Positions 35,966 through 58,674 of a stretch of DNA of 64,000 nucleotides are shown here, piece by piece (the first letter of the stretch is position 1; every line of letters starts with the position of its first letter). The DNA comes from Bacteroidales bacterium. GTDB lineage: Bacteria; Bacteroidota; Bacteroidia; Bacteroidales; WCHB1-69. A program made the position numbers and the translations under genes. The notes below the pieces were generated by a model. It did not search any database. It worked only from the letters and a program-made list of their open reading frames with translations, and was not told the origin of the DNA. The stretch lies in assembly GCA_017651425.1 (NCBI GenBank), contig JAGCCZ010000062.1:24564-88563 (forward strand), read 5' to 3'.

Positions 35966-36048
35966 AAGAGTTTGAGGAGAAGATGTTTTGAGGCATTAAT
36001 CGGCTACAGAAACATTGTCATCACAACATATATTGTAATTTGCAACAG

Positions 36049-36375
36049 TCACTCCGCCACCTCCACCTTGCTGAAGTCCATCCTCACGGGGGTGACGTTC
36101 TGCCATCCTGCCATCGGGCAAAACAACGAGCCCGTCACGCGCACGCGCTTGTGGGAATATTGGGCTGCGAAATCCTTTTCAGAAAAAGATTCATACTTTT
36201 CCCAATCCGGCACAATCATAAACTCCGACTGCCATGTTGTACCGTCTTCCGAAAGAAAATCAATTTCCTCCTGCGAAAGATATGGAGTCACATCAACGGG
36301 CTTGTCCGTCTTGAGGATAAAGGTGATGCACTCCCCTTCTTTGTGAGTTTTTCTGTAGCGGTCAATCTCTTGCAA
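36049..36375 (-). CDS. hypothetical protein (108 aa)
   Basis: TTG start only. The frame is open for 17 further codons upstream without an ATG. The C-terminal ..RVRVTGSLFCPMAGWQNVTPVRMDFSKV is duplicated as a fragment at 37901..37980. Confidence 0.4.
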   Translation of the reverse strand: MQEIDRYRKTHKEGECITFILKTDKPVDVTPYLSQEEIDFLSEDGTTWQSEFMIVPDWEKYESFSEKDFAAQYSHKRVRVTGSLFCPMAGWQNVTPVRMDFSKVEVAE

Positions 36376-36519
36376 GCTGTCGCCATAAAGGGTGACGAGG
36401 TATAGGTGGAAGGTGCCGCATTGTCAAAGTCAGAAAATGTTTAGGACGCTATTGATAAATATTACCATTTTCTTTTCCCTTCCTCCGTGTCGGGCGCAAC
36501 TGCTAATTGGTTTATTGTA

Positions 36520-37764
36520 TTACAACTTAGAGACAGGTACAAGGCTTATCTGGTAACCGTCTTTCTCTATCATACGTTCATCATTGTTCGTCACAATGAC
36601 AAGGTTGCTGCATTTCAACTCTCCAGCACACTCAACCAAACTGTCAACCTCGCGTTTCTCGGTTTTGGGGCTGCTTATGTCGTAACAAACCTGAACCAGC
36701 CGCTCAATGTGTGTTCCCCTTCGCAGGACGAAATCGACCTCCTTGTCATTACGCGAACGATAATAGAACATCGTCTTGTCAGTATCGTATCCACGACGTA
36801 TAAGTTCGATGAACACCTGGTTTTCAAGCAAGCGCCCGAGATTGTCGCTCAATGCGAAAGCCTTGGCCGCTACAAAGCCATTATCCACTACATAGACCTT
36901 TCGCGGGGCCTTCTTCATCAATTTCAGCTTGTTATTGTAACGGGGCAGATAATAAAACAGGTATGGCTCGTGCAGATAGTCCATGAACTTCTTGGTGGTA
37001 TTGACGCTGGAGAAGCCTAACTCTTCTGTCAATTCGTTGGCACTGACAGGATTACAGAAGTTGGAAACAAGATACATAGCGAGATTGTTCAAGTCTGTCA
37101 CATTACGTACATGGTGTCGTTTCGCCACATCCTTCCACACAATGGAGTCAAACAACGTGTCGAGATAACTACGCGTCAATGGACGTGAAGCCACCACCTC
37201 TGGATAGCCGCCATTCCTCATATAATCATCCGTCAGTACTGCGGCTTCAGTTTTCTGTTCCGGCTCCAGTTTGTGGAGGTCGAGTTGATGCCAGTCGAAA
37301 AACTCCTCCAGACTGAACGGCAGCATCTCCACCTGAAGATACTTGCCTGTCAATACTGTGGCCATCTCGCTGCTGAGCATCTTGGCATTGCTACCCGTAA
37401 TGACAAGGTTCTTGCCCATCCTGTAAAGCTCACTGACCCACAAATCCCATGCCTCAAGGTTCTGCACCTCGTCGAGCAGGATATATTCATAATCTGGATA
37501 GACATCATCCAGCATCCGCATGATCAGGTTCGCATCCCAGGCATCCAACAAAGGCTGACTGTCGAAGTTCAAATAGGCAAAGTTCTTGTAACGCAACATC
37601 AGCAAAGCCTGAGTGGATTTGCCCACACGCCGAGGTCCAGTAATCAATTTGATGAGGTGGCTGCCCAGCAAAAGATCTGTATCTTGATTGCCTCGTCGCG
37701 TCAGATAAGGACGTGACATCAAATTGTCGCGTTCCTTTTTTTGGTTGAGAATAACCGTCTTCAT
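36520..37764 (-). CDS. AAA-family ATPase with DUF4143-type C-terminus
   Basis: Walker A GPRRVGKST and Walker B ILLDEVQ. The C-terminal EVDFVL....I.L..V.Y arrangement is typical of this stand-alone ATPase family. Confidence 0.85.
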   Translation of the reverse strand: MKTVILNQKKERDNLMSRPYLTRRGNQDTDLLLGSHLIKLITGPRRVGKSTQALLMLRYKNFAYLNFDSQPLLDAWDANLIMRMLDDVYPDYEYILLDEVQNLEAWDLWVSELYRMGKNLVITGSNAKMLSSEMATVLTGKYLQVEMLPFSLEEFFDWHQLDLHKLEPEQKTEAAVLTDDYMRNGGYPEVVASRPLTRSYLDTLFDSIVWKDVAKRHHVRNVTDLNNLAMYLVSNFCNPVSANELTEELGFSSVNTTKKFMDYLHEPYLFYYLPRYNNKLKLMKKAPRKVYVVDNGFVAAKAFALSDNLGRLLENQVFIELIRRGYDTDKTMFYYRSRNDKEVDFVLRRGTHIERLVQVCYDISSPKTEKREVDSLVECAGELKCSNLVIVTNNDERMIEKDGYQISLVPVSKL

Positions 37765-37786
37765 TTTCTGTCTTTTTATTTGTCGG

Positions 37787-37794
37787 CAAAGATA
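37787..37794 (-). promoter_or_regulatory. -7 promoter box TATCTTTG
   Basis: 22 nt upstream of the ATPase ATG. Confidence 0.6.
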
Positions 37795-37810
37795 CGTTTT
37801 TTTTCAATTC

Positions 37811-37859: not shown

Positions 37860-37900
37860 ATATAGCATAAAGTACGGCAACTTCATTGTTATCCTTAGAA

Positions 37901-37980
37901 CCTTACTGAAGTCCATCCTCACCAAAGTCGCATTTTGCCAGCCGGCCATGGGCAGAACAACGAGCCCGTGACGCGGACAT
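37901..37980 (-). pseudogene. truncated, frameshifted copy of the 3' end of a 36049..36375-like gene
   Basis: About 78 nt align by eye to 36066..36140 (ccttactgaagtccatcctcac...aacaacgagcccgt.acgcg.ac). A 1-nt deletion (tgcccatgg vs tgcccgatgg) breaks the frame. There is no 5' part. Confidence 0.5.
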
Positions 37981-38040
37981 GCTGTTTATAATTGGTTTTC
38001 AAAAAGTGGAAAAATGGACAATTGCGATTGGCGAATTGTC

Positions 38041-38144: not shown

Positions 38145-39257
38145 TTATTCTTTCGCACTATAACTCCTCACCACCTCCACCTTCTTCGTCTCAGGATCCG
38201 TGTACAGGATTTGCAACCGTTCCAAGGCCGTGTTTAAAACATATTCGTAGTCGCCATTTTGGAAATGGTATTCGTGTTTTGCGGCATCGTACCGCCCTTG
38301 CGTGACAATCAGATCCGGGGCGGAAGAGAACATCTTGTCCTTCTTCCACAAAAGGAGGCGATAGGAGCCGTTCGCAACGCTGTCAACACGGACGATGGAA
38401 TCTCCCGCCTCGAACTCCGACAACAGCCAACCTGGTTCCAGCAAGTATTTGGCCAAGACAGGGTTGTATTCCAGCTGTTTGTAACGGAACTTCTCGCCGT
38501 CCCAGGTGAAACGATGGTAAAAATCCGTCATGAACAAACCGCCGTCGGGGCCTCTCAGGTAGGCGAATTGCGGCATATAGAGATCCTTTCCCGTCAGTTC
38601 GAAGAAGAAGTTTTCTTCCCAAGCACCTTCGTAGTAAAGCGACGGCGAACCAGGGGTGCACTCAACGGAAAGATTAGCGGAAAAGCCCACTGCTTTTGGG
38701 TGAATTTCGGGGATGTGCTCAAAGATTTCGGCTGGCTTTAGCAATCCTGTTTTATCCATCGAAAAGGCATCCACACCTATATCGTATGACCAACCTTCCT
38801 GACGAAAGAAATACTCAACGAGATAAACCGACCCATCTGAAGATTCCAGTTGATACAACTTCCTTGGTTCCCGATAATAGTCCTCCATAAACACCCCCTG
38901 AAACGTTACATTGTTTTTGGTTTGATAGATGGTATGGAAGCTGATTGTGCTACCGAAGTCGCCGTCTTCCCAGCTATAAACTTTCAGCTTCCCATTGGGC
39001 GAGGTGAGAAGGGTAATGCGCAACTCATACAGCTTCGCGGACAAATCCGCATCGAAAGTGGTCTCATCGTGCTGCAGTCTCTCCACGAAGCTTACCAGCT
39101 CCTTGGCGTATGCCTTTCTTTCAGGAGAGTCATCCTCGAAGGTGAGGAAGTATTTCGTGGGGTCAGTAGTAACTTGTTTTTTCTTCTTGCAGCTTGACAA
39201 GACTACGACGAGTGCTATCACTAATACGACGAGTAATAGATGGTTGTTGTTAAACAT
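38145..39257 (-). CDS. hypothetical lipoprotein, island paralog family (member 1)
   Basis: Lipobox VVLSSCKKK. The C-terminal module IVRVDSVANGSYRLLLWKKDKMFSSAPDLIVTQG is shared with 42137..43318 and, more loosely, with 46767..47879. Confidence 0.65.
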   Translation of the reverse strand: MFNNNHLLLVVLVIALVVVLSSCKKKKQVTTDPTKYFLTFEDDSPERKAYAKELVSFVERLQHDETTFDADLSAKLYELRITLLTSPNGKLKVYSWEDGDFGSTISFHTIYQTKNNVTFQGVFMEDYYREPRKLYQLESSDGSVYLVEYFFRQEGWSYDIGVDAFSMDKTGLLKPAEIFEHIPEIHPKAVGFSANLSVECTPGSPSLYYEGAWEENFFFELTGKDLYMPQFAYLRGPDGGLFMTDFYHRFTWDGEKFRYKQLEYNPVLAKYLLEPGWLLSEFEAGDSIVRVDSVANGSYRLLLWKKDKMFSSAPDLIVTQGRYDAAKHEYHFQNGDYEYVLNTALERLQILYTDPETKKVEVVRSYSAKE

Positions 39258-39320: not shown

Positions 39321-40592
39321 CTAACGAATCTTCAGCGTCAAAATAGTCACCGCAGCAAGTATGAGCGTGACAATACAGAACCGTAACACAATCTTCACCT
39401 CGTGATGTTTGTTTTCACTGCCTTTGAAGACAAAAGTGCAAGTTGGGTCGTATTTCCGAACGTCTTCAATGGATTTGCGGAAATGGTCATGAATCGGGGT
39501 GCCTCTCCAAACCCGCACATGGCGATTCCGTTTCTTGTAGAATTTATACACCCGCGTTTGAATGATGACGCCGAGACTTTCCACCAAGAAAACCCCACAG
39601 AGCAAAGGCAGCATCAGCTCCTTGTGGATAATCATCGCGCAAACGCCGATGATGCCGCCTATGGTTAAGCTGCCCGTGTCACCGAGGAACACCTGCGCCG
39701 GGAAACCGTTCCACCACAGGTAGCCCACCAATGCCCCGATGAATGTGGCCAGGAAGATTGTGATTTCCTCAGAGCCTGGGATGTACATTACATCGAAATA
39801 TTCAGCGAACACAACGCTGCCACTCATATATGCCAGCACTAAAAGTGCAACGCCGATTATAGCTGAATTTCCGGCGCACATACCATCCATACCGTCGTTT
39901 AGGTTGGCCCCGTTGCTCACCGCTGCGACTACGAACACCGTCAACAGCACGAAAAAGATCCAGCCTGCACGGTACTTGTTTGTCTCGCCGAGCCATGAAA
40001 ACAAGTCGGCATAGTTGAAATTATGATGTTTCACAAATGGAATTGTCGTCTGGGTGGATTTTATCTCCGGAGTTTTGTCCACCACCTCGATGTTGTTCTC
40101 GATGTGACTGCTCACCACCTCGTTCATCGTCACCGCCGGACTAAAACGCAGGGTAAGGCCGACAATCAGACCGAGTAACACCTGCCCTGCAATCTTCACC
40201 CAGCCGTTCAGGCCATCTTTGTTTTTACGGAAGGTCTTGATGTAGTCATCCGTGAAGCCAAGCAATCCCATCAACACCATAGTAACGAGCATCAGAATCA
40301 TATACACATTTGTCAGTTTGCCCAACAGCAGACAAGGAAACAAAATGGCCACGATGACGATGATGCCGCCCATAGTGGGCACATTCTTCTTCTCTTTTGC
40401 CGCCGGGTCGATCTTCTCATCGCGCTGTGTCTCGCTAATCTTGTGGCGAGTCATCCAATGGATAAACCACTTTCCGAACCAAATACTGATGCACAGTGCC
40501 ATGATGCCTGCAATGATGGCGCGGAAGGAGATGTAAGTAAACAAACTTACGCCGAAAAGGCTATTGAAATAGGTGAATAAAGAGTATAACAT
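39321..40592 (-). CDS. mraY: phospho-N-acetylmuramoyl-pentapeptide transferase
   Basis: 423 aa. KNVPTMGGIIVI, FTDDYIK, NGANLNDGMDGM, FLGDTGSLTIGG and PIHDHF are present, with the Bacteroidales-type C-terminus ..TLKIR. Confidence 0.9.
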   Translation of the reverse strand: MLYSLFTYFNSLFGVSLFTYISFRAIIAGIMALCISIWFGKWFIHWMTRHKISETQRDEKIDPAAKEKKNVPTMGGIIVIVAILFPCLLLGKLTNVYMILMLVTMVLMGLLGFTDDYIKTFRKNKDGLNGWVKIAGQVLLGLIVGLTLRFSPAVTMNEVVSSHIENNIEVVDKTPEIKSTQTTIPFVKHHNFNYADLFSWLGETNKYRAGWIFFVLLTVFVVAAVSNGANLNDGMDGMCAGNSAIIGVALLVLAYMSGSVVFAEYFDVMYIPGSEEITIFLATFIGALVGYLWWNGFPAQVFLGDTGSLTIGGIIGVCAMIIHKELMLPLLCGVFLVESLGVIIQTRVYKFYKKRNRHVRVWRGTPIHDHFRKSIEDVRKYDPTCTFVFKGSENKHHEVKIVLRFCIVTLILAAVTILTLKIR

Positions 40593-40598
40593 GATGAA

Positions 40599-41123
40599 TT
40601 ATTGTTTGATTATTACAAGATACTTTGGAGGAACAGCCTCTGTCAGCCACACATTGTTTCTTGAAAGCCAGAATTGATATCCGTCTTCCCACATTTTGTG
40701 TGCGGCAACTTTCAAAATGACCACATTCCCTTTCCTACGGCTTCCCACTTTTAACGCTATGGATTCGTCAATCGACAGGTGAACATGTTGACGGCTCATT
40801 GGTACGAGTCCTTTTTCCATGATAGAGGGCACATTTGCAGCAACGGTGCCGTGATAGAGATATTCTGGCGGTGTAGCTTCCGCCAATTCTACATCCACGG
40901 CAATACTATGCCCTTGTCGAGCACGGATGTACTGACCATCCTCCGAAAACTCGAACCGCTGTTTGTTACTATTTGCTACGATATTTATCAGTTCCTCAAG
41001 AGTGAAAGCATGACTTGTAATAAGATCACTGACCTCCCGCCAACCATGGATGTCGAAAGCGTAGTGGATGTCGTGGCGCAGGAGGTAGGCTAAACGTTTT
41101 TCTTTATGGATGTTGTCGGGCAT
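40599..41123 (-). CDS. kptA: RNA 2'-phosphotransferase (Tpt1/KptA family)
   Basis: LAYLLRHD, GW, IRARQGHS, YHGT and QHVHLS, i.e. an R-H-R-R catalytic-tetrad context. 174 aa. Confidence 0.85.
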   Translation of the reverse strand: MPDNIHKEKRLAYLLRHDIHYAFDIHGWREVSDLITSHAFTLEELINIVANSNKQRFEFSEDGQYIRARQGHSIAVDVELAEATPPEYLYHGTVAANVPSIMEKGLVPMSRQHVHLSIDESIALKVGSRRKGNVVILKVAAHKMWEDGYQFWLSRNNVWLTEAVPPKYLVIIKQ

Positions 41124-41170: not shown

Positions 41171-42052
41171 TTATATGTTGAACCATTCCAAACTTTCTTC
41201 AAAAGTCTTTCGTAAGTCTTCAACGGATGGATCTGACGGCAATTTGTACTTTTCGTCAAGGAACGAATAGGCATATATATTCGCCAGTTTAACACCCACA
41301 AGCAACGCTTCTCCGTCTATGAGATTGACAGAAGTATTAACCGCCCTGAGCTCCTGACTGTTACGAATTGCAACTCCCACCTCCTTGTCCCATACCTTGA
41401 ATTGCCGAACGACCTCTGCTCTACCCAATCCCGTCAAATAATAAATTCCAAGGTCCACGTCACGAAAAATCGCGGGTGTTATCACATTTCCACGCTTGCC
41501 ACTGTATCCAAATCCCAATCTCGTCAAGTAAGCATCCTTGACACAGCAGTCATGAACAACGCCGAACAAGGTGTCACGTGCCTCATCGTCCGTAAATTCC
41601 CGTTCAGTATGGTATAAAACAGCCATATAGTCAATATGTGACAGTTTGTTCTTTTCTATGACATAATCTTTATCCTTGGCTAAACGCAGACAGATAAAGT
41701 AATAATTCCTGTCCGCATCAAATTGTCCCAAATTACTCTTAATAAAGTCTAACGGGAAATGACGGATGATAATCCAGGCGCATCTGTTTTCATGGTACCT
41801 CTCCCACAATTCTTTGACCTTCTGCTCAAAAGAAGGGTCCCACAAATCAAGCAACCTGGAATACACCCATTCCCTGTCGGACTTTCCGGAATCCAAAAAA
41901 GCATCCATGATCCGCTTTTGGTCCTCCCAGTCAAGACCGGAGAACCGCTTACGAATCTCGTTCCGCGACTCTGACACTTTGCCACTTTTCTTGTCGATAT
42001 AGTTCTTGATGACCGTGGCGATGGGATTGTTTCGTTTCACATTTCTGTACAT
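41171..42052 (-). CDS. hypothetical protein (293 aa, cytoplasmic)
   Basis: Clean ATG ORF, co-directional with 47-nt and 84-nt gaps to its neighbours. No motif I can assign. Confidence 0.6.
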   Translation of the reverse strand: MYRNVKRNNPIATVIKNYIDKKSGKVSESRNEIRKRFSGLDWEDQKRIMDAFLDSGKSDREWVYSRLLDLWDPSFEQKVKELWERYHENRCAWIIIRHFPLDFIKSNLGQFDADRNYYFICLRLAKDKDYVIEKNKLSHIDYMAVLYHTEREFTDDEARDTLFGVVHDCCVKDAYLTRLGFGYSGKRGNVITPAIFRDVDLGIYYLTGLGRAEVVRQFKVWDKEVGVAIRNSQELRAVNTSVNLIDGEALLVGVKLANIYAYSFLDEKYKLPSDPSVEDLRKTFEESLEWFNI

Positions 42053-43318: not shown

Positions 43319-43364
43319 ATTCGATGTTTGTCTGAATGTATTATTAACTTCCATGGTGAGGTCA

Positions 43365-44347: not shown

Positions 44348-44551
44348 TTAATTACGGTATCTGGATCGAATCAGCAATACGCCAAGAATACAGATTATGA
44401 CAACGGTTCCGACACTGATGATACTATGAGTCACAATAGGAAGATTGAAAAACAGAGGAACAACCTGAGCGATAGCTATGAGGAAAAGTAATATTTCCGA
44501 ACCTTGTTGCAAACGTCTGTTCTTGTTTTGGTTGATGCTATTCGTAAACAC
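44348..44551 (-). CDS. possible small two-TM membrane protein
   Basis: 67 codons with a GTG start only. It has two hydrophobic stretches (ILLFLIAIAQVVPLFF, IISVGTVVIICILGVLLI) and lies 57 nt downstream of the rSAM gene. Confidence 0.35.
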   Translation of the reverse strand: MFTNSINQNKNRRLQQGSEILLFLIAIAQVVPLFFNLPIVTHSIISVGTVVIICILGVLLIRSRYRN

Positions 44552-51502: not shown

Positions 51503-53284
51503 CTATTTGCCTCCTATCGCCGCGTTTAATGCGTTGATTTCTTTGTTTTTGCTTTGGATTATTGACTGGAGTTCTTGTATCTTTTGATCCTTTTGTGTGA
51601 CAATACTATTCAACCTTTTCACCTCGGAGAAGTTGTCTGCTGACTTTTGATTAGACAATTGGGACTCAAGATTCTTGATTCGCTGATTTTTTTGCGTTAT
51701 CTGATTCCTTAGATTCGCAATCTCGGCTGCATTGTCCGAAGGCTTTTCTTTGGACAATTGATTCTCGAGGTTTCTGATTATTCGGTCTTTTTGCGAAATC
51801 AGATTGTTTAAGCGATTGATTTCATTCGAACTGACACCGGGAGACACTTGTGTCACTTCGTCATCTTGTAAATCTGATATGATTGTCCTGAGTTCATTGA
51901 TTTCATTATTGGCAGATGCAATAGCCTGATCCTTTTCTTTCAGTTTCCTGTCCCATTCCGCAGGACTATTGTTCCACGCATAAAGGGATGTCCCCACACC
52001 AAAAAGGCAAAAAAACGAGATCAATATCCACAAAGGGGTTCGTCTCTTGTTAAGTTGTTGCTGCATTGCAGTCAATTGTTTCTGCGAGTCATGTAATTGT
52101 TCCTGCGTTTCGCGCAAAGTCTGCTGAGTCCGATTGAGCGCGTTTTGTGTGCTATTCAACTGCTTGTTTAATGAAGCATTTGTATCTCGCAACTCATTTG
52201 CCCGTGCGGACAGCAACTTATTCTCAGATTTCAACTGATCTATTGCCATCTCAAATTTGACATTGTTGGTGTCCTTGCAATGAGCCTCTATGCATTCATA
52301 CAACTCCTTGCCGTTTCTGAACCGATCATTAGGATTTTTGCTCAGGCACTTCAAGATGACATCCTCCAGCCATTGGGGGTAATCACGTTCGTAGGTTTCT
52401 CCAGAAAATTTCTTTTCAAAGAATCCTTTGCGGGCAGATTCTATTGCAGGAGGCGGCCATTGCCTCAGGTGCGCATCCATCAGTCTCTCATCATCTGGAA
52501 ATGGATATTGACCCGCAAGCCAAGCGTAAAGAACTACTCCAAAGCTATATACATCTGATTTCTTAGTGGGTTCCGTTTTGCTATTACCGTTCCACAATTC
52601 AGGTGCTCTGGAAATTTCTGCGCCGCCATGGCAACGGCTGAGTGTTGGAGCCTCTTCTCCCTCGACGGCCATCCCAAAATCAATCAAAATGAAATTCCCG
52701 TCAGTACGACGCAGTATGTTTTTTAGATGGATATCATTGTGAATAACTTTATACCGTTCAATCAAGCCATTACGCATTTTTTCGTCCTTCACCACAGAGC
52801 CTACCACACATCCGTCTGGTAGTTTGTCCTTATCGGGATCCATCAGGAAACGATAAGCCTCTTCATGACAGTAAGCAAGCGCACTGCTGATTTGCACTGC
52901 CATCCGAAGCACTTCTTCTACAGGCACAAAATTCCCGTTCTCCTTCAAATATTCCGCCAAGTTGTCCCCCTGGATGTAATTTCTTTCCCAATAGGCGATA
53001 TGTTCAGACGGGAATTGCGAGTCCTGGAACGTGCCATAGGTATTGATACTCTCTATATGCGGGTGACTGCCGTTGCCAAGTTTCAACAGCACTTCGGTCT
53101 CCCGCAGGAACTTCACATATATCTTGTCCTTTTTAAGCTCTTCATCGTCTTTGGCGACAATAGGATCTTTCAGCACGCGAATAGCACGCACATGCCCCAA
53201 TTCCTTGTGACGGACCTTATAGACCTTGGCGAAAGAGCCGTCTTTGTCGCCGCCAAGGACTTCATATTCTTTTGGTACTGCCAT
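51503..53284 (-). CDS. Hanks-type Ser/Thr protein kinase with TM segment and extracytoplasmic coiled-coil repeats
   Basis: GSFAKVYKVRHK (P-loop/Lys), HNDIHLKNIL (catalytic loop), IDFGMAV, SRAPELW and SDVYSFGVVLY. TM segment LWILISFFCLFGVGTSLYAW. The C-terminus carries 33-aa repeats. Confidence 0.9.
   Translation of the reverse strand: MAVPKEYEVLGGDKDGSFAKVYKVRHKELGHVRAIRVLKDPIVAKDDEELKKDKIYVKFLRETEVLLKLGNGSHPHIESINTYGTFQDSQFPSEHIAYWERNYIQGDNLAEYLKENGNFVPVEEVLRMAVQISSALAYCHEEAYRFLMDPDKDKLPDGCVVGSVVKDEKMRNGLIERYKVIHNDIHLKNILRRTDGNFILIDFGMAVEGEEAPTLSRCHGGAEISRAPELWNGNSKTEPTKKSDVYSFGVVLYAWLAGQYPFPDDERLMDAHLRQWPPPAIESARKGFFEKKFSGETYERDYPQWLEDVILKCLSKNPNDRFRNGKELYECIEAHCKDTNNVKFEMAIDQLKSENKLLSARANELRDTNASLNKQLNSTQNALNRTQQTLRETQEQLHDSQKQLTAMQQQLNKRRTPLWILISFFCLFGVGTSLYAWNNSPAEWDRKLKEKDQAIASANNEINELRTIISDLQDDEVTQVSPGVSSNEINRLNNLISQKDRIIRNLENQLSKEKPSDNAAEIANLRNQITQKNQRIKNLESQLSNQKSADNFSEVKRLNSIVTQKDQKIQELQSIIQSKNKEINALNAAIGGK
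51506..51823 (-). repeat. in-frame ~99-nt (33-aa) tandem repeats encoding the kinase C-terminal coiled coil
   Basis: EINRLNNLISQKDRIIRNLENQLSKEKPSDNAA / EIANLRNQITQKNQRIKNLESQLSNQKSADNFS / EVKRLNSIVTQKDQKIQELQSII.... Confidence 0.8.
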
Positions 53285-53306: not shown

Positions 53307-53870
53307 TTAGAAACGGTGAATTAAAAGGATGACTCCGTTAACGGAATCTTGATGTGCAGTAGTTATTTTCCCTGTAGAAAAATCGTGGGTAAAAAAAAGT
53401 GTACGGCTATTCTGTTCGGGTGTACACGTCCAATAGATATCATATAATCGGACAACATCCCTATTCGAATATATCAACTTCATCTCATCCAACGTGGGAA
53501 TTCCTTTCCTTGTTACATAAAGGTCAAAATAGTAGTAAAGTTTTTGCCATCCTTTGTTCAGCACTGCCAATCCATGTTTGCCCCCGTCTCTTATATAAAC
53601 AACCTGATATTTTTCATCACCTACATCTATATAGTCTCCCACATTATACGTTTTCTCTTTGCCGCAATCCCCAATCAACACTTCCACCGAGACCACGGTT
53701 TTCCCCGAAAGCTCCTTATAGACATTGTAATACTTTTGTGCCGCATCACAATCACCGGCTTCCAACTGCTGCATAGCTTTGTCGAGGTAGTGGGAATAAT
53801 CTGTTTGGGCAAAGCAAGCAGTCAATGAATTTAAGATGAAAACACCGAACAATAAAATAATCCGTTTCAT
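53307..53870 (-). CDS. hypothetical secreted protein
   Basis: Signal peptide MKRIILLFGVFILNSLTACFAQ. It is sandwiched between the SEDS-PBP and kinase genes with gaps of 12 and 22 nt. Confidence 0.6.
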   Translation of the reverse strand: MKRIILLFGVFILNSLTACFAQTDYSHYLDKAMQQLEAGDCDAAQKYYNVYKELSGKTVVSVEVLIGDCGKEKTYNVGDYIDVGDEKYQVVYIRDGGKHGLAVLNKGWQKLYYYFDLYVTRKGIPTLDEMKLIYSNRDVVRLYDIYWTCTPEQNSRTLFFTHDFSTGKITTAHQDSVNGVILLIHRF

Positions 53871-53882: not shown

Positions 53883-56800
53883 TTATCTGTTAACATATCC
53901 GTTTGCATACAATGATTCCAAAATCGCATCTTTGGTCAGGCGGACGGCGGCACCGGAACCCGCTCCACGCTCTATGCGGACACATACTGCCAATGGATGT
54001 TTGCCATTCTGTCCCTCTACAAAGAACATATACCAACCGTCATTGATTTTTTGGGGTACTGAACCGACATAGCGATAACGTTCAGCCGTCCCTGTTTTCC
54101 CCCCAACTAATACTGGTAGGGGCGCGTTATTGCGAGCTTTTTGATTGGCAGACTCCGCCTTCATATATCCTTTCAAAACAGCGGCACTTTTAGGTGTCAA
54201 CAATTGCACTTCACCCTCATTCCGCAGCTTTTTTGCAAATTCACCTTTAGGCAATACATATTGTGTACATGGCATTTTGCCTTTATTCACCACCGCAGAT
54301 GCAACTCGCGCCATGTTGAGCGGCGAAGCTTGCAGTTCATAGTTTCGGTAACCTTGCCCCCAAGCCCAACGCCACTCCCCTTCATTCATGTTCTTATGGG
54401 TTCCATTTTCCGTACGCTTGGCATATTTTTCAAGTGCTACCTTTTGGTTTTGAGTTATTTTGTCTCGAAAGTGTTTTTGTTGCTCCGCATTAGTCTTTTT
54501 AGTGAAATAATACGGCACTGAATTCCCGATAGCGATGCCGGTGGCTTCATAGACACTGTCCAAGGCCCAGTACAAATCGTTGTCATTTACGAGATTGATG
54601 AAATAGCAGTTGGAGGACTCGACTATAGCCCACCACATATCCACTTTATCAACCGCTTTTTTATGTCTTGGGTAGAACAGGCCCTGATATGGCTCTTTTG
54701 CACGGCCTTTCTCGACAATATCATCCTTTGTCACCAAATAGGTCTTATCGGCAGCGGCAGTTCCCAGTTTTTGAAACCCGGCCATTGCAGACATCACTTT
54801 CGCCGTGGAGCCAGGCATGGTCTGATGGAGCAAACCCAAATCGCGCTCGGTATAAGCGCACCACCCTCCGTCTTTGTAATTGTCTGAATATCCGTGCGAG
54901 GCCTCCTCGCGTAATCGTTGGTAATCCGGCAACGGATAGTTCGCCGATGTCAGCAAATCCCCGTTTTGGGCATCCAACACAACGACAGAAATGCGCAACA
55001 GGTTCTTATTTGACAATCTTTTTTTCTGCACATATTCTGCGATTCGTTGTTGCATATCGGTCTGCAATTGGGCATCCACCGTGAGATAAAGGTCGTATGC
55101 CCCTTCTTGAACTTCCCGGTTATGTTTTCTCAATCTCCTACCGTGAATGCCATTTCGAAGATACTTCACCAATTTATGTTTATCCTCCAATGTGAGCGTG
55201 ACAAAGTCTTGTTTGTAGTAGTTCAAATATCGAGAATTGGCTTTGATTTTGTCGCTATGCAGGGTGACTTTTGCCGTAGGCTTTCCCTTTATATCATAAC
55301 CTCGCAGATAGGACTTGTGTTGGGATTCCGCCAAATACCCAATTGGATGTTTTTCGTTATATTCAAAAACAGGACCTAAGTTTTGGTCACCGACCATAAA
55401 GAAGAGATGTTCGGCACAAGGATAATAACGTTTGTTATTTCCATCACTTGCGGCAAGAAGGACTCCCTTACGATCATAGATATTTCCCGTTTTCATCTCC
55501 CTGTCAAGCAATTCAATACGCGGATTATACTCTATTGTGGGCCACCCGTCTTTTGATAGCGTGTATGCAGGTCTTATGAGAGTCTTATTTCTCGCAAAGC
55601 AGCCCAAGCCATAGTACGCCCAAACGCCGAGCGTGACAACGGCTATGAATCCAAAGATGAAAATGACAATCCCGCTTGTGTAATTGTATTCACCCACACT
55701 ATGTTTGCGGATTCTCTCTTGGCTTTCAGTCAGATGTTCCTGTTTGATGTTTTGGGAGAACGAGAGCACTATCCCTATAGCAAAAAGATTGACTATCATG
55801 CTCACGCGCCCATAGCTTAAGAAGGGGACAGTGATACCTGTAAGCGGAATAATGCCACTGCTGCCAAGAGCTATGATGAAAAATTGCACGACAGTCGCAA
55901 TCGAAACACCCATACAGAAATAAAAAGCAAACAAGTGTTTTACAGCATAGCCAACCTTTACAGTTCTCCAAAGAAGTAACATCAGAGCAGCGATAACAAG
56001 AGCCAACCCAATCCAGCCCGTCTGTTCTGCTATGGAAGAAAGTATCATATCCGTTTGGAAAGCAGGTATGAGGTTTGGGTTACCATCGCCCAGTCCTTGC
56101 CCGGAAAGACCGCCTGTAGCCATAGCCCAAAGCCCGTTGGCTACTTGGGTGTTGCTCACAGGTTTTGCATCTTTTCCGTGTGGATAATTGGAATCTTTAG
56201 GGTTGAAATCCAAATCTCCCCATGTGTTGACACACATGCTGGTGCGTTGTTCGAAACGTTCCCCAAAATCAGTATTCACATTTTTTGCAATAGCACCTCC
56301 AAAGACAAAAACGAAAACAAGCACATTAAAAACCAAAGCAGACTCAACGACCTGTTTGAGGCGGTACCTGCCATATAGAATCCAACAGAAAAACCAAAGG
56401 CAAGCAAGCAACAGAGATAATTTCGCCCCGGACAACCAGTAACCAACAACTATAAAAAAAGCGAAGGATAACACACCATATATTAACATGGCAAAGTCAC
56501 ACGTCAAGATTTTCTTCTTCTTTTCATCCTCTGTCAGATTGTCGAGATTGACTTTTGATTTCACTAATGAATAGAGCAATATAAAAGTAACGCCGATGAC
56601 CAATGCAGGCCCCATATCTTCCAGTATAAAGTACAAAAACAGAAGCAATAGCAAACCGACAATGACCCAACTGAGTGTTTTTACTTTCGCTCCGAAACGT
56701 TTGACATTTGGTTGAGAGTAGGCGACTATAAAATCTGCCTTTTGTGTAAAAAACGCTGCTATAAAGAACAATGTCAGATATTTGACTATTTCGCTCGGCT

Positions 56801-58298
56801 GAAAAACCGGGAGACCCGGCAATGCAAGATTCACTTTAACCCCGCCTACTTCTTTACCGAAGAAAAACAACAAAACGGTTAAAAAGAGGGCACATAACAG
56901 CCAACCAACACCATCGGGAGCATGGTGATTACCCTTATGTTTCAACTTGAAAGAAGCAAATTCAGGAGTGATTGGTTTCAGCAACAATCTAAACGGAAGA
57001 AGGGAAACGTCCACTACAGTAGTGACAACCAATGCCACTACAGCAATCATCTTTTTATACCATACGACCCTGCGGCTCAAAGTCAATCTCGACCATTTTG
57101 TTTGCTCAACAAAAGGAGAAAAACACCATTTCATCAATTCCGTTGGCAGTTCAAAGCCCAAACGATATTGATTTTGATAGAATCTAACAAAGTCAATACA
57201 TTGCAGAATCCCTATCAGCACAATCCCTGCCAACACGCCTTTCGCCATCACAACGCCTTCCAAATCCTCCGTCAGCGGATTATGTATCGCAAACATCACG
57301 AGAACGCACAAGCCCGACAAGAACATAACCGCAGCCACTAATAGAGTATCGAATTTGTGTTTGCGCCAACGCAAAAAGAGAACTAACAGCCACCAAGCCA
57401 ACATAACCAATCCAAACCACGTAACCACTTGAAATTTAAACTCCTGCGGTGTGCGGACTGTAATGGTTCCATCGTTCTTAATCTGTCTGAGCGTGAGGTT
57501 GTCAATCATCGGTATGCGATGCTCCAACTGCTCAAACTCAAACGCTTTATTTTTCCCAAAATGCTTGCGCTTGTCAAAAACGCCTCGCACAACTCCTTTT
57601 GAAGAACCGTACTCACAGCCTGCTTTTAGGGGAAGCACACTGTAGCCATACGCTCTATTCAAACCTTTAAAGACGACCCTTCCTTTGCTGTCGGTTTTGG
57701 CATATCCAACAATGTCCGTGTGTTCCACTGAATCCACATAGTACTCTCGCAAGCACACCACCACGTCTTTGCAATCCGACTTCTTTTTTCCGAAAAGCAC
57801 ATTGAGAATCTTTCCCCGCCTCCTTTTTTCGTAAACACGCACCTCAATACTCCCATCTCCGTTCTCTCGTTTTAAATCCAATTTCGTGTCGAGCGAACCA
57901 TTTTCAGGGACAGAGTCTTTCAACCCCAAGCGTTCGTACGACAGATAGAGATTGTTTGTCAATACATTTTCTTTCGCAGCCACCGAAGCCGGAACCTTCC
58001 CGAAGTCCCGTTTTTGGAGGTGATACAGGTTCGGGTACTCCATCCCCCTTTTCAGTCTGGCCACGATGGTATCGGCAATAAAATCTGCGTCTTCTTGGTC
58101 GGCTACATACCCGTTTGTCATCAGAATTTGCGACAATTTTCCGGAGTCTGTTTCCGGTGAAAGGTTTATGGCACGGTCATGTTTATAATCCTCCTCAACT
58201 TCCTCAAATCGAGAACGGAGGTTGTTGAAAAGCATCAACATCATACCACACAACACAAGTGTGGAAATCAGCATTGCGTATTTTCGGATTGTATCCAT
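53883..58298 (-). CDS. fusion protein: N-terminal periplasmic domain + SEDS (FtsW/RodA) glycosyltransferase + class-B penicillin-binding transpeptidase
   Basis: 1471 aa with no interruption. SEDS landmarks: FQPSEIVKY (res 499-507), GGLSGQGLGDGNPNLIPAFQTDMILSSIAEQTGWIG (729-764) and PLTGITVPFLSYGRVS (818-833). A PBP membrane anchor at ~875-898 is followed by the transpeptidase triad STAK (1164-1167, codons checked at 54809..54798), SSN (1228-1230) and KTG (1401-1403). Confidence 0.9.
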   Translation of the reverse strand: MDTIRKYAMLISTLVLCGMMLMLFNNLRSRFEEVEEDYKHDRAINLSPETDSGKLSQILMTNGYVADQEDADFIADTIVARLKRGMEYPNLYHLQKRDFGKVPASVAAKENVLTNNLYLSYERLGLKDSVPENGSLDTKLDLKRENGDGSIEVRVYEKRRRGKILNVLFGKKKSDCKDVVVCLREYYVDSVEHTDIVGYAKTDSKGRVVFKGLNRAYGYSVLPLKAGCEYGSSKGVVRGVFDKRKHFGKNKAFEFEQLEHRIPMIDNLTLRQIKNDGTITVRTPQEFKFQVVTWFGLVMLAWWLLVLFLRWRKHKFDTLLVAAVMFLSGLCVLVMFAIHNPLTEDLEGVVMAKGVLAGIVLIGILQCIDFVRFYQNQYRLGFELPTELMKWCFSPFVEQTKWSRLTLSRRVVWYKKMIAVVALVVTTVVDVSLLPFRLLLKPITPEFASFKLKHKGNHHAPDGVGWLLCALFLTVLLFFFGKEVGGVKVNLALPGLPVFQPSEIVKYLTLFFIAAFFTQKADFIVAYSQPNVKRFGAKVKTLSWVIVGLLLLLFLYFILEDMGPALVIGVTFILLYSLVKSKVNLDNLTEDEKKKKILTCDFAMLIYGVLSFAFFIVVGYWLSGAKLSLLLACLWFFCWILYGRYRLKQVVESALVFNVLVFVFVFGGAIAKNVNTDFGERFEQRTSMCVNTWGDLDFNPKDSNYPHGKDAKPVSNTQVANGLWAMATGGLSGQGLGDGNPNLIPAFQTDMILSSIAEQTGWIGLALVIAALMLLLWRTVKVGYAVKHLFAFYFCMGVSIATVVQFFIIALGSSGIIPLTGITVPFLSYGRVSMIVNLFAIGIVLSFSQNIKQEHLTESQERIRKHSVGEYNYTSGIVIFIFGFIAVVTLGVWAYYGLGCFARNKTLIRPAYTLSKDGWPTIEYNPRIELLDREMKTGNIYDRKGVLLAASDGNNKRYYPCAEHLFFMVGDQNLGPVFEYNEKHPIGYLAESQHKSYLRGYDIKGKPTAKVTLHSDKIKANSRYLNYYKQDFVTLTLEDKHKLVKYLRNGIHGRRLRKHNREVQEGAYDLYLTVDAQLQTDMQQRIAEYVQKKRLSNKNLLRISVVVLDAQNGDLLTSANYPLPDYQRLREEASHGYSDNYKDGGWCAYTERDLGLLHQTMPGSTAKVMSAMAGFQKLGTAAADKTYLVTKDDIVEKGRAKEPYQGLFYPRHKKAVDKVDMWWAIVESSNCYFINLVNDNDLYWALDSVYEATGIAIGNSVPYYFTKKTNAEQQKHFRDKITQNQKVALEKYAKRTENGTHKNMNEGEWRWAWGQGYRNYELQASPLNMARVASAVVNKGKMPCTQYVLPKGEFAKKLRNEGEVQLLTPKSAAVLKGYMKAESANQKARNNAPLPVLVGGKTGTAERYRYVGSVPQKINDGWYMFFVEGQNGKHPLAVCVRIERGAGSGAAVRLTKDAILESLYANGYVNR

Positions 58299-58603
58299 TT
58301 TGAGTTGATATTGCCTGTGATATTTATTCAGATTTGTTCTTTAGCATCCTTTTTTGTTGTCGCATCTGCGTTAACAAACAACAACCTTACCGTATCGCAC
58401 ATAAAGAAAGTGGAGCTTCAGTTCGACAGTCTCCACTCGGTAGGGTCTGGACTCCCCGTTAGTAAGATACTGAAGAACAAGCCCCACCTGTTTGTATTTG
58501 GCAATAAATACTCACAAGCAAGCTTGATTTCCGATATCCGTACTAACATTCGCGAATGGTCCAGATTCACCGAGACGGATAAGCGAAAACTCGCTTTCTT
58601 TTT

Positions 58604-58641
58604 AATAAAAACCGCCGCCCGGCATCACGACCGAACAGCGG
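58604..58641 (-). terminator. probable rho-independent terminator of the dipeptidase gene
   Basis: On the minus strand: CCGCTGTTCGG-TCGTGATG-CCGGGCGGCGG (11 bp including 3 G.U pairs), followed by TTTTTATT. Confidence 0.6.
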
Positions 58642-58674
58642 GGCAAAGATAATAAAAAAACAATTATATAACGA

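Follow-up and report, generated by a model that had tools for sequence, protein, structure and literature searches.

A 22.7-kb AT-rich cell-envelope island in a rumen Bacteroidales genome appears to be a mosaic of exchanged modules

Wall-growth signalling in Mycobacterium, Corynebacterium and Streptomyces involves the actinobacterial operon fhaA-fhaB(fipA)-pstP-rodA-pbpA-pknA-pknB. In Bacteroidota, Pedobacter ginsengisoli carries a giant 'bifunctional class B' chimera of SEDS protein and transpeptidase (TPase) that adjoins genes for a Ser/Thr kinase and a phosphatase (PMC12516126, section 21). Pedobacter with the fusion still keeps canonical FtsI/FtsW and MrdA/RodA (PBP2) pairs, and that paper makes no mention of FHA genes or mobility for the fusion (PMC12516126). 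Here we describe a 22.7-kb AT-rich, one-directional block from an uncultured rumen Bacteroidales genome, at positions 35966-58660 of the window (the whole 64,000-nucleotide stretch of DNA that was analysed). Its right arm corresponds, within Bacteroidota, to the fhaA-fhaB-pstP-rodA-pbpA-pknAB cluster of actinobacteria. From sequence comparison we read the block as a mosaic comprising four or more modules and not as a single operon that was imported, and give a probability of about 0.6 to its being a hypervariable, recombination-exchanged cell-envelope locus whose separable modules are co-oriented by happenstance.

The island is compositionally distinct. G+C is 0.433 across 35966-58660, against 0.544 in 1-35965 and 0.531 in 58661-62914, and 2-kb windows do not overlap (island maximum 0.478, outside minimum 0.487). 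Mean GC3 per gene is 0.51 for 17 island genes versus 0.71 for 31 flank genes (Mann-Whitney p ~1e-6), and tetranucleotide signatures likewise set the two groups apart. An earlier note on this DNA had claimed a sharp drop from spot counts of 20/60, 24/60 and 41/60 G+C; a recount matched all three exactly, and the drop held in all of these computed measures. The right border is sharp (G+C 0.45 to 0.57 across 58660), and comparison with a related island independently places it at ~58652-58660. The left border is graded (birA 0.53, orf108 0.50, ATPase 0.47, MraY 0.49). From 58298 down to 36049, 17-21 domain-bearing or conserved ORFs, depending on how small ORFs are counted, all lie on the minus strand, in agreement with the roughly 20 noted earlier down to 38145; every plus-strand ORF in the island overlaps minus-strand genes, and none has a family match. 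The same note had reported wall-synthesis, phospho-signalling, RiPP and lipoprotein genes, with no integrase, transposase, tRNA or flanking direct repeat. Our searches agree, finding no integrase or transposase domain among island ORFs, no tRNA or Rfam match in the island and only chance 11-mers as border repeats.

The right arm (58660-46540) is a closely packed eight-gene run from the SEDS-PBP fusion to LipoA, whose products are the fusion, two lipoproteins, a membrane Ser/Thr kinase, two FHA proteins, a membrane PP2C phosphatase and an HTH protein. Relatives (L numbers) are from a comparison set of metagenome contigs and MAGs, which leaves the relationships among species and the number of copies of each gene uncertain.

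58299..58660, minus: island leader and right junction (-7-like box, hairpin, untranslated leader)
53883..58298, minus: SEDS (FtsW/RodA)-class B PBP transpeptidase fusion, 1471 aa (Pfam PF01098 1e-34, PF00905 2e-15)
53307..53870, minus: lipoprotein, 187 aa (signal peptide and lipobox)
51503..53284, minus: Hanks-type Ser/Thr protein kinase, 593 aa (Pfam Pkinase 2e-29; NCBIfam PknB-like 2e-35, below cut-off)
50658..51467, minus: 269-aa cytoplasmic protein with C-terminal FHA domain (Pfam FHA E=0.22; hhalign)
49697..50665, minus: 322-aa cytoplasmic FhaA-like protein, N-terminal alpha/beta and C-terminal FHA (AF2, Foldseek, hhalign)
48269..49693, minus: PP2C Ser/Thr phosphatase, 474 aa (Pfam PP2C_2 2e-16; NCBIfam Stp1/IreP 5e-59, below cut-off)
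47957..48247, minus: XRE-type HTH protein, 96 aa (Pfam HTH_3 3e-6; 87% identical in L179)
46767..47879, minus: LipoA, lipoprotein paralog, 370 aa (paralogy; 97% identical in L179)

The leader combines a Bacteroidetes-type -7-like box (TATCTTTG, 58651-58644), a hairpin with a 12-bp stem and U-tract (58641-58612) and ~310 untranslated nucleotides before the SEDS-PBP start; homology with the L188/L189 island begins here, with the hairpin stem kept and the loop variable. The fusion combines a signal-anchor at its N terminus with ~265 aa of extracytoplasmic domain and ~14 or more transmembrane (TM) segments, and its catalytic motifs (QTD750, S1164xxK, S1228xN and K1401TG) are all intact. It partially matches the NCBIfam FtsW, RodA and PBP2 models, each below the equivalog cut-off, and has 141 homologs across Bacteroidota; the PBP pedestal (PBP_dimer) domain was not detected in it. 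The 187-aa lipoprotein, which had no family match in Pfam and NCBIfam searches, is kept beside the fusion gene (68% ortholog in L172, 36% partial match in L183). The kinase consists of a kinase domain, a coiled coil, one TM segment (~418-436) and an extracytoplasmic coiled-coil tail, with no PASTA domains. The phosphatase has a catalytic domain (1-253), an acidic linker, a TM segment (~296-314) and an extracytoplasmic C-terminal domain; its catalytic domain is 91% identical to that of L179 and its C-terminal part 35-40%, and the C-terminal domain is swapped among island variants.

For the 269-aa protein, the Pedobacter ortholog matches Pfam FHA at E=0.0017, and hhalign pairs the island protein with a Spirosoma 'FHA domain-containing protein' (WP_232563957; probability 98.5%, E=3.5e-15). 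The AF2 model of the 322-aa protein (pLDDT 75) has only FHA domains as top Foldseek PDB matches, and its matches include Mtb FhaA (2lc1), GarA and OdhI; hhalign pairs it with the Spirosoma FHA protein WP_232563952 (probability 94.5%), and its L175 ortholog matches FhaA_N (E=0.025). The HTH gene is host-like in composition (G+C 0.546, GC3 0.70), and LipoA is the final gene of this closely spaced arm.

Together these genes, as module 1, would provide an extra peptidoglycan synthase under Ser/Thr-phosphorylation control, in which SEDS glycosyltransferase and class B transpeptidase share one polypeptide and the fusion is co-transcribed with the membrane kinase, the membrane PP2C, two FHA readers, a lipoprotein and the HTH protein. 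We infer the signalling logic and substrates by borrowing the actinobacterial FhaA/FhaB-PstP-RodA-PbpA-PknA/B paradigm. Kinase and phosphatase, each with its own extracytoplasmic domain, would respond to a cue from the envelope or from outside the cell by setting the phospho-state of a membrane target; the FHA proteins would bind phosphothreonine and activate or localise the fused polymerase-transpeptidase, which would build or repair wall from lipid II.

A recombination breakpoint follows the right arm, and beyond it lies a RiPP cassette.

46530..46550, no strand: recombination breakpoint (blastn and alignment: right side 97% identical to L179, left side unrelated)
46144..46347, minus: RiPP precursor 1, 56-67 aa, C-terminal end ...YCSDGSCSGDCVGGCDGTPAGGLNP (sequence)
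45693..45869, minus: RiPP precursor 2, 58 aa, TTG start, ...GCEGTCNGVCADTCKGKYIAGCDGT... (CX3C repeats)
44609..45700, minus: radical SAM/SPASM peptide maturase, 363 aa (Pfam Radical_SAM and Fer4_12)
44348..44551, minus: candidate 67-aa two-TM membrane peptide, GTG start (ORF, status uncertain)

Both precursors have CX3C repeats and a common GCDGT motif. The first is followed by a hairpin (46134-46100, 14-bp stem); a TAAGTTTG box lies near the second, at 45920, and the stop of the second overlaps the maturase start. At 46079-45972 there is a third, doubtful, Cys-rich ORF. The maturase gene has the lowest G+C of the island (0.357), and its product matches the NCBIfam PapB (8e-41) and CXXX-repeat-target (2e-36) families, both below equivalog cut-offs. 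As module 2, the radical-SAM/SPASM enzyme would cross-link the Cys-rich CX3C peptides encoded upstream into a ranthipeptide-like product, which might have some link to the kinase or phosphatase. The L179 and L172 islands hold different cassettes at this position, the window's being unrelated to that of L179, and the RiPP cassette is apparently an exchangeable unit.

The left arm, module 3, comprises genes for three paralogous lipoproteins and a 293-aa cytoplasmic protein, together with Tpt1 and MraY as a tightly coupled pair.

43365..44267, minus: LipoB, lipoprotein paralog, 300 aa (homologs: L179 51%, L183 46%)
42137..43399, minus: LipoC, lipoprotein paralog (paralogy; 33% homolog in L180)
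41171..42052, minus: cytoplasmic protein, 293 aa (same-length gene at same position in L180)
40599..41123, minus: Tpt1/KptA-family NAD+-dependent 2'-phosphotransferase, 174 aa (Pfam PTS_2-RNA 7e-42; PDB 7kw8)
39321..40592, minus: MraY (phospho-MurNAc-pentapeptide translocase), 423 aa (TIGR00445 230 bits, cut-off 192)
38145..39257, minus: LipoD, lipoprotein paralog, 370 aa (64% homolog beside MraY in L180)

The four lipoprotein paralogs of the island (LipoA-D) are 24-38% identical, and each has a lipobox Cys. LipoC probably starts at M28 (~43318), giving ~393 aa, and the LipoD AF2 model is marginal (pLDDT 64) and mainly beta. The 293-aa protein had no match in Pfam, NCBIfam, PADLOC, PHROGs or PDB. 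Tpt1 matches the PDB Tpt1 7kw8 at 3e-34, with the LRH, RxxQGHS, HVHLS and GxR motifs aligned, and its gene lies 6 bp upstream of that of MraY. MraY shares 80-93% identity with over 100 MraY clusters from Bacteroidales and 81% with a Paludibacteraceae MraY embedded in dcw, and its GC3 of 0.64 lies closer to the host value. The equivalog score, the identity to many orthologs and the more host-like GC3 speak against MraY as imported cargo. The Tpt1-MraY pair lies outside dcw in 5/5 lineage contexts, a biased sample in that three were chosen for a SEDS-PBP match on the contig; Tpt1 is paired with MraY in L179, L180, L183 and L184. MraY is most likely the ordinary lipid-I synthase of the lineage, moved out of dcw, and a resident anchor gene; the Tpt1-linked mraY may be the only copy.

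The left end was claimed earlier to carry decay signatures, and it does, with a truncated orf108, a second fragment of the same gene and a stand-alone ATPase.

37899..37984, minus: orf108-family gene fragment, residues 147-175 (sequence comparison)
36520..37764, minus: stand-alone AAA_14/DUF4143 ATPase (Pfam 3e-29 and 4e-23; PADLOC PDC-S01 3e-104)
36049..36417, minus: orf108, TTG-only truncated remnant of a 179-aa secreted protein gene (78% identical to L118:4076-4615)

orf108 keeps residues 58-179 of the secreted protein, and the signal segment and ATG are missing. The ATPase gene has its own TATCTTTG promoter box at 37794, and an imperfect direct repeat of ~85 bp, formed by the orf108 3' end (36065-36149) and the fragment at 37899-37984, brackets it. 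This arrangement suggests an independent cassette (module 4), separately inserted and flanked by gene remnants, that would encode a defence-candidate ATPase, PDC-S01 being a PADLOC candidate defence family. In L180 the same hotspot carries TIR-WD40 and TPR genes, and a methylase/GHKL cluster lies beyond htpG. The whole block could be an anti-phage or conflict island, with kinase, phosphatase and FHA proteins as infection sensor and the other genes as effectors, a reading to which the ATPase match, these other genes and PADLOC matches of the kinase (PD-T4-6 and MADS6 kinase models) and PP2C (PDC-M21C) would lend themselves. We consider it very improbable: the kinase and phosphatase matches reflect no more than a generic likeness of catalytic domains, the hallmark genes (for SEDS-PBP, MraY and lipoproteins) belong to envelope biosynthesis and have their active sites intact, the module sits among housekeeping genes in low-GC Bacteroidota, phage and viral collections gave no matches, and the ATPase cassette alone is plausibly defensive.

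The block is patchily distributed. Sister species lack it at the homologous site, where L120 and L170 have only rnfA-helicase-birA, L092 three ordinary-GC genes and L118 different AT-rich cargo; every same-species contig carries it. Related islands lie elsewhere on the chromosome, after rnfA in L172, beside HAD-OTCase in L174/L183 and between an IS1595 transposase and ribBA-lepA in L188/L179, whose flanks differ entirely from the window's; L180 has a DDE_Tnp_1 gene. The htpG side was not syntenic in any relative, so that no empty site with both flanks was recovered. Nucleotide identity between the right arm and L188/L179 is 95-97% and breaks off abruptly at ~46540 and within the PP2C gene, whereas MraY has only 78%. 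Host rnf genes of the window and L172 share 92-97% identity, and common island genes 53-79%. The module set (FHA, PP2C, one or two kinases, SEDS-PBP fusion, FHA) also occurs in Pedobacter, a Spirosoma plasmid (whose genes carry PGAP names), L175 and L172, and the right arm stands alone in the first three. In L172 and L174 the module stands out as AT-rich from flanks with 0.55 GC, and in low-GC L175 and L177 its composition agrees with that of the host.

Horizontal or recombinational exchange of island sequence is well supported by these comparisons: AT-richness, patchy distribution, differing sites and sharp identity breakpoints indicate that modules 1 and 2 have been exchanged among related genomes. 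Module exchange runs without an element-encoded integrase. The persistence of AT-richness could stem from causes other than transfer, and the island might instead be an old resident family wall locus with the sole mraY, AT-rich and fast-diverging for functional reasons (envelope diversification, low expression), its different sites being rearrangements such as a Dus-birA inversion. An inversion of [island + birA...Dus] does reconcile order and orientation between the window and L172, placing both islands at one ancestral rnfA/birA gap; distant Bacteroidota have the module with host-like composition, all same-species contigs carry the block, MraY is essential and always adjacent, and the window contains neither an integrase nor an att site nor a tRNA. 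This reading is nevertheless improbable, since sister species with conserved flanks have the helicase only, or unrelated cargo, at the site; in three separate hosts GC3 lies 0.2 off that of host genes and has not ameliorated; over 12 kb the identity is 96% to an island with a 78% MraY, different flanks and IS1595 at its edge; and the homologous module is plasmid-borne in Spirosoma.

Whether the 22.7 kb form one unit is a separate matter. The earlier note had proposed a functionally linked super-operon acquired horizontally; its foreign composition, accessory or variable nature and exchange are supported, and its unity is not. Such a super-operon would be a self-contained alternative wall pathway from MraY to SEDS-PBP, RiPP and lipoproteins included, and we regard it as unlikely, though somewhat less so than a resident locus. 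Every gene is co-oriented, a RiPP cassette follows PP2C/LipoA in 3/4 islands, and the L174 variant has an extra Wzx-like flippase adjoining the synthase. The span from SEDS-PBP to MraY/Tpt1 and lipoprotein recurs in three genomes at three chromosomal sites (window, L188/L179, L174/L183), and this recurrence speaks for a closer functional tie between the arms than the term 'separable modules' would convey. The island is, however, split by gaps of 282-452 bp, by hairpins and by a separate promoter box into a predicted five transcription units at least. One super-operon is further unsupported because sub-block histories are discordant (96% vs 78% nucleotide identity, abrupt breakpoints), the right arm stands alone elsewhere (Pedobacter, Spirosoma, L175), no SEDS-PBP module lies in the 10 kb retrieved upstream of the L180 left arm, MraY is orthodox, highly conserved and more host-like in composition, and the ATPase is a separate cassette.

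An exchanged mosaic is thus our preferred reading, and its parts resemble known systems to differing degrees. Like the actinobacterial operon, the right arm unites in one cluster a pair of FHA proteins (of which one is FhaA-like and has an additional domain at its N terminus), SEDS, a class B transpeptidase, a membrane PP2C with extracytoplasmic tail and a Hanks-type membrane kinase. Unlike it, SEDS and bPBP are fused (1471 aa) with an extra N-terminal extracytoplasmic domain, added TM segments and no detected pedestal; there is one kinase, not two, with a coiled-coil ectodomain in place of PASTA repeats; the host is a didermic Bacteroidota bacterium; and the cluster is accessory, AT-rich and apparently horizontally exchanged, whereas the actinobacterial operon is core. 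The Pedobacter chimera belongs to the same protein family (31-32% identity over SEDS and TPase parts), with kinase, ~316-aa FHA protein, PP2C, fusion and 264-aa FHA protein clustered together, but its cluster is host-like in composition amid housekeeping genes, and the island is an AT-rich mosaic with RiPP cassette, lipoprotein paralogs and MraY-Tpt1.

In behaviour, by analogy and not homology, the island resembles O-antigen and capsule loci, which are low in G+C relative to the genome, one-way, integrase-free and placed between conserved genes, with content swapped cassette-wise among close relatives by recombination. It differs in that its genes are for signalling proteins and synthases of the peptidoglycan type and not for sugar-nucleotide and Wzx/Wzy polysaccharide functions (the L174 variant, with its Wzx-like flippase, is a partial exception), and in its varying chromosomal position among carriers. 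As in ranthipeptide/CXXX-repeat RiPP clusters (PapB/freyrasin, TIGR04115), the maturase directly follows short Cys-rich CX3C precursors, with overlapping stop and start. Unlike in those clusters, the maturase scores far below equivalog cut-offs (140 vs 340 bits, 126 vs 350), one precursor has no ATG start or clear leader, there is no dedicated protease or exporter, and the cassette is lodged between wall-signalling and lipoprotein genes.

The block at 35966-58660 is AT-rich, with a G+C of 0.433 against 0.544 and 0.531 outside it. The three single-line counts on which the earlier note had based this claim were reproduced exactly, 2-kb windows inside and outside the block did not overlap in G+C, and tetranucleotide usage differed between island and flank genes, as did mean GC3 (0.51 in 17 island genes versus 0.71 in 31 flank genes, p about 1e-6). 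The block deviates compositionally from its host genome in the manner of a genomic island, with a sharp right border and a graded left one, where a 108-codon, TTG-only remnant (orf108, 36049-36417), an ATPase gene, the lipoprotein gene LipoD and mraY are intermediate in G+C; the minimum (0.357) is the radical SAM (rSAM) gene. Every credible gene lies on the minus strand, and the reported lack of integrase, transposase, tRNA gene and flanking direct repeat was borne out. The window contained no tRNA gene and no Rfam family match, searches with Pfam, NCBIfam, PADLOC and PHROGs returned no integrase, recombinase or transposase inside the element, and no direct repeat was found at the block borders, the sole repeat being internal and bracketing the ATPase gene. 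Among the loci fetched from relatives (L-numbers), an IS1595 transposase gene abuts variant L188 and a DDE_Tnp_1 gene occurs in L180. Outside the block, G+C drops a second time, to 0.40, at the right window end (62915-64000), and dips locally to 0.46-0.48 in the left flank (10001-11000, 16001-17000 and 22001-23000). At the right window end, a same-species contig (L010:1-6355) continues, past a T9SS/RHS-repeat protein, with genes for a C5 DNA methylase and a GHKL ATPase of 702 aa beside three unknown ones, which together look like a separate defence or restriction-like island.

The right arm of the block (58660-46540) is a compact run with intergenic gaps of at most 77 bp.

Right-arm genes, in order on the minus strand
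Minus strand: SEDS glycosyltransferase-class B transpeptidase fusion, 1471 aa
Minus strand: lipoprotein, 187 aa
Minus strand: Hanks-type kinase
Minus strand: 269-aa protein
Minus strand: 322-aa protein
Minus strand: PP2C phosphatase
47957-48247, minus strand: XRE-type HTH protein
Minus strand: lipoprotein LipoA

Both halves of the fusion protein retain catalytic motifs. In the SEDS part (PF01098, 1e-34), QTD750MI aligns with the xTDFIF motif, whose Asp is an essential residue in RodA and FtsW, and the transpeptidase part (PF00905, 2e-15) has S1164TAK, S1228SN and K1401TG. The pedestal by which class B PBPs contact their SEDS partner (PBP_dimer, PF03717) had no match in the fusion protein at E<=0.01, the TIGR03423 alignment begins at model position 211, and the Pedobacter relative is likewise reported to lack a pedestal (PMC12516126). 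The kinase has one TM segment and a coiled-coil ectodomain, on which Pfam and NCBIfam matched no PASTA muropeptide-sensing repeats, and the phosphatase has one TM segment and an extracytoplasmic C-terminal domain. The HTH gene is host-like in composition (GC3 0.70; 0.79 in L179:2527-2766) despite the AT-rich arm around it. In the L187 and L188 variant, whose fusion protein is 96% identical to that of the window, an extra gene for 253-259 aa, absent from the window, separates the fusion and 187-aa lipoprotein genes (L187:14447-15208; L188:14429-15208).

The 269-aa and 322-aa cytoplasmic proteins are FHA proteins, as judged from profile alignments and a structural model. Their direct Pfam FHA scores are below threshold, and neither they nor the 293-aa protein of the left arm gave a significant hit in PDB sequence searches. 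The families of both align near full length to two PGAP-annotated 'FHA domain-containing proteins' on a Spirosoma oryzicola plasmid, with hhalign probabilities of 94.5% (322 aa) and 98.5% (269 aa), and the genes for these plasmid proteins adjoin a homologous fusion gene. For the 322-aa protein, a Foldseek search of the PDB with its AF2 model (pLDDT 75) retrieved only FHA domains, including M. tuberculosis FhaA, GarA and OdhI; the Pedobacter ortholog of the 269-aa protein matches Pfam FHA at E=0.0017, and an ortholog gave a sub-threshold match to FhaA_N (PF12401).

The fusion gene is preceded by a 376-bp leader with a TAnnTTTG box and a strong hairpin. Promoters were scanned for as TAnnTTTG, a sigma-70 scan being unsuited to Bacteroidota, and such sites are suggestive only. 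At the start of the leader (58612-58651), the box is followed directly by the hairpin and a U-tract; L188/L189 conserve the stem but have another loop. The structure could terminate ddpX transcription, attenuate the leader, or do both.

Homologs of the fusion protein are distributed across Bacteroidota (141 matches), and in Pedobacter, Spirosoma, L175 and L172 they are accompanied by the kinase, a ~320-aa FHA protein, PP2C and often a second FHA protein. Searches of phage and viral contigs found no relative of the fusion protein, and a plasmid search found one plasmid only, in Spirosoma. The module is AT-rich relative to its flanks in all three high-GC hosts examined; L175 and L177 are low-GC genomes, where its composition is that of the host and its neighbours are housekeeping genes.

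Presence among close relatives is patchy. Every metagenome contig of the same species carries the block, and its proteins are identical among them; related species keep the left-flank order GT2-EPSP synthase-PFK-DUF4197-birA (birA 40-66% identical), past which the island is replaced by a RecD-like helicase and rnfAEGD (L120, L170), three ordinary-GC genes (L092) or unrelated AT-rich cargo (L118). Of the birA-to-htpG comparison that the earlier note proposed, the birA side shows the block absent in these relatives; an empty site with both flanks was not recovered. The window's HtpG has 94% identity to its counterpart in a Bacteroidales MAG from water-buffalo rumen, which, with the T9SS sorting domains encoded in the window, identifies the source as an uncultured rumen Bacteroidales bacterium. 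Despite this identity, neither side of the htpG neighbourhood (59698-62914) shows synteny with the closest reference genomes (L012-L015), so no empty site can be defined from the htpG side. Beyond the helicase and birA, the L118 cargo (L118:1-6410; G+C 0.35-0.44) encodes zinc-ribbon/thioredoxin proteins, an HD-domain protein and a full-length 179-aa gene. The window lacks the RecD-like helicase, which is the neighbour of birA in at least eight relatives. Outside the window, ddpX and htpG are adjacent only in two loci, both from distant Prevotellaceae (L058, L064).

Other relatives carry related islands at other chromosomal sites. In L172, the closest relative by host genes (rnf proteins 92-97% identical), an island directly follows rnfA; only six of its genes have counterparts in the window (53-79% identical), and a different rSAM cassette comes after them. 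The window's Dus-T9SS-GT2-EPSP-PFK-DUF4197-birA block (28934-35965) is inverted relative to rnfDGEA when compared with L092, L120 and L170. One inversion of the island together with the birA-to-Dus stretch would reconcile gene order and orientation, so that the window and L172 islands may share an ancestral hotspot. The L188/L179 island lies between the IS1595 transposase, on the rnpA-yidD side, and ribBA-lepA, and that of L174/L183 beside HAD-OTCase. The latter is a third variant (L174:14594-23585 and L183:1-11319), with extra genes between the SEDS-PBP fusion and the FHA-FHA-PP2C-MraY-Tpt1 end that encode a Wzx-like Polysacc_synt flippase, a GldM-like protein, several zinc-ribbon proteins, a second kinase and an FGE-sulfatase-domain protein.

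Comparison with L188/L179 resolves the block into segments of different relatedness.

Window segments compared with L188/L179
58652-48930: 95-96% nucleotide identity
48206-46540: 97.5% nucleotide identity
Left of about 46540: homology stops within a few bases
RiPP cassette, minus strand: unrelated cassette in its place
LipoB, minus strand: 51% protein identity
Tpt1, minus strand: 52% protein identity
MraY, minus strand: 78% nucleotide and 84% protein identity

The right junction of the shared sequence (~58652-58660) coincides with the border drawn in the earlier note and takes in the promoter-like box and hairpin. The PP2C gene is itself mosaic, with a catalytic domain 91% identical and a linker, TM segment and extracytoplasmic domain only 35-40% identical; this C-terminal divergence (window 48269-48930 versus L179:1745-2412) is a sub-genic swap or rapid diversification of the presumed sensor part. 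Exchange by homologous recombination in conserved segments, with occasional IS help, is the most likely route; it would explain the missing integrase and resembles the mode of exchange of O-antigen and capsule loci. The observation of an AT-rich, co-oriented block is confirmed, and its interpretation as a horizontally acquired, functionally linked super-operon is partly supported: composition and relatives agree with a foreign, variable block, and the mosaic parts and breakpoints speak against a single super-operon.

To the left of the right arm, a gap of 452 bp separates LipoA from the first of two short Cys-rich precursor ORFs beside the maturase gene, which have CX3-4C repeats and a common GCDGT motif. 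The first is followed by a hairpin with a 14-bp stem and the second overlaps the maturase start. The maturase appears to be a radical SAM/SPASM enzyme related to the PapB family (8e-41; 140 bits, cut-off 340) and the CXXX-repeat-target family (TIGR04115, 2e-36; 126 bits, cut-off 350). The rSAM gene and LipoB are 341 bp apart, and this gap contains a GTG-started 67-aa ORF (44348-44551) with two predicted TM segments, which may be a small membrane peptide tied to the RiPP cassette or spurious. A second tight run follows (LipoB, LipoC, the 293-aa protein, Tpt1/KptA, MraY and LipoD; gaps of at most 84 bp). LipoA-D (38145-39257, 42137-44267 and 46767-47879) are mutually paralogous and belong to a family that lacks a Pfam model and comprises, in public data, ~1,295-1,300 clusters at 50% identity; Pfam scans of its long members gave a single informative fusion, to ankyrin repeats in one distant member, and an AF2 model (pLDDT 64) had beta-propeller-like PDB matches with TM-scores of only 0.2-0.28.

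At the left end, an AAA_14/DUF4143 ATPase with its own promoter-like box matches PADLOC PDC-S01 (PDLC04787) over its full length (3.3e-104, residues 15-409), a candidate defence family. The imperfect ~85-bp direct repeat that brackets it consists of two remnants of one gene, whose full-length form, a 179-aa secreted protein, occurs in L118. The decay that the earlier note saw here is real, its 108-codon TTG ORF being the larger remnant, and the ATPase is an independent cassette within this debris. We considered whether the whole block is a defence island and rejected this: apart from the PDC-S01 ATPase, its PADLOC and PHROGs matches reflect only generic similarity to kinases and phosphatases.

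MraY scores 230 bits against TIGR00445, above the 192-bit equivalog cut-off. More than 100 Bacteroidales MraY clusters are 80-93% identical to it, which argues against its being a divergent second, accessory paralog, and the MraY of a textbook dcw cluster in Paludibacteraceae (L182) is 81% identical. Its GC3 is nearer host values than that of the remaining island (0.72 in L179). The usual place of mraY is the dcw cluster, between murE and murD; in the window it lies outside dcw, flanked by Tpt1 and a lipoprotein gene. Five contexts were sampled, covering the three MraY subclusters closest to the window (window, L179, L180, L183 and L184), and in all of them mraY is outside dcw and abuts tpt1 across 6-12 bp, in either gene order. 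No dcw cluster of this lineage was found among the 189 fetched loci, the sole one there being that of Paludibacteraceae. Tpt1/KptA (PF01885, 7e-42) conserves the catalytic Arg-His-Arg-Arg motif residues and aligns end to end with solved enzymes (PDB 7kw8 and 6e3a), its NCBIfam score of 190 bits staying short of the 239-bit equivalog cut-off. In L180, a left arm of LipoC-like, 293-aa, Tpt1, MraY and LipoD-like genes lacks a SEDS-PBP module in the 10 kb of upstream sequence fetched and abuts the helicase found beside birA in relatives. The most economical reading of these neighbourhoods is that mraY-tpt1 would be a resident pair of the lineage, beside which variable cargo accumulates. The L180 hotspot collects defence-type genes too: the sequence that immediately precedes its lipoprotein-Tpt1-MraY arm (L180:1-6268) encodes TPR, TIR-WD40 and TIR proteins, a DDE_Tnp_1 transposase and an AAA_14/DUF4143 ATPase.

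Immediately upstream of Tpt1-MraY in L184 (L184:7095-10302) is an ADP-ribosylglycohydrolase fused to a dual-specificity phosphatase, which hints at a reversible ADP-ribosylation cycle tied to the pair. A far-reaching version, which we regard as improbable, is that the cell's only mraY left dcw and joined Tpt1, an NAD+-dependent phosphotransferase, in a horizontally exchanged, kinase-controlled island for alternative wall synthesis, where Tpt1 would target a phosphorylated wall-precursor or carrier-lipid intermediate, or MraY itself, rather than RNA, by ADP-ribosyl or phosphate transfer, and the L184 fusion would reverse the modification. If true, lipid I synthesis would gain a control step linked to NAD+. 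To our knowledge, bacterial Tpt1 has no established physiological substrate, which makes its conserved pairing with mraY, an essential-type gene, outside dcw a concrete, testable lead and the most interesting loose end of the locus.

What the analysis shows directly are domains, motifs, topology, conserved neighbourhoods, composition and the breakpoints of recombination. Beyond these, we propose for the right arm a signalling circuit around the fused synthase. Kinase and phosphatase would receive an extracytoplasmic cue via their variable ectodomains and set phosphothreonine marks, which the two FHA proteins would read; this reading would in turn control the fused polymerase-transpeptidase, a putative third wall synthase besides divisome and elongasome. 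The RiPP product might serve as a cue or as a secreted factor independent of the circuit.

In its set of parts, the right arm corresponds to the fhaA-fhaB-pstP-rodA-pbpA-pknA-pknB operon of Actinobacteria, where this cluster is a central wall-growth regulator and a neighbourhood of drug targets. Shared with that cluster are SEDS and class B PBP motifs, two FHA proteins, and a membrane PP2C and Hanks-type kinase; the actinobacterial cluster also has the pedestal and PASTA repeats, neither of which was detected in the window, so membership is incomplete. A 2025 survey of morphogenetic synthases described the Pedobacter ginsengisoli protein as a rare chimera of unknown function beside kinase and phosphatase genes, the genome having retained its canonical FtsI/FtsW and MrdA/RodA pairs (PMC12516126), and our literature search found nothing further on the module in Bacteroidota or on a Tpt1-MraY link. 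The Bacteroidota counterpart of the actinobacterial cluster, in which the two synthase activities are fused, has so far only been flagged as a rare curiosity. We add that the module is widespread across Bacteroidota and repeatedly associated with swappable RiPP cassettes and the large lipoprotein family. In high-GC rumen lineages it behaves as exchangeable AT-rich cargo whose extracytoplasmic parts are diversifying, which suggests a cell-surface role under diversifying pressure from phage, competitors or host for this counterpart of the actinobacterial wall-growth cluster.
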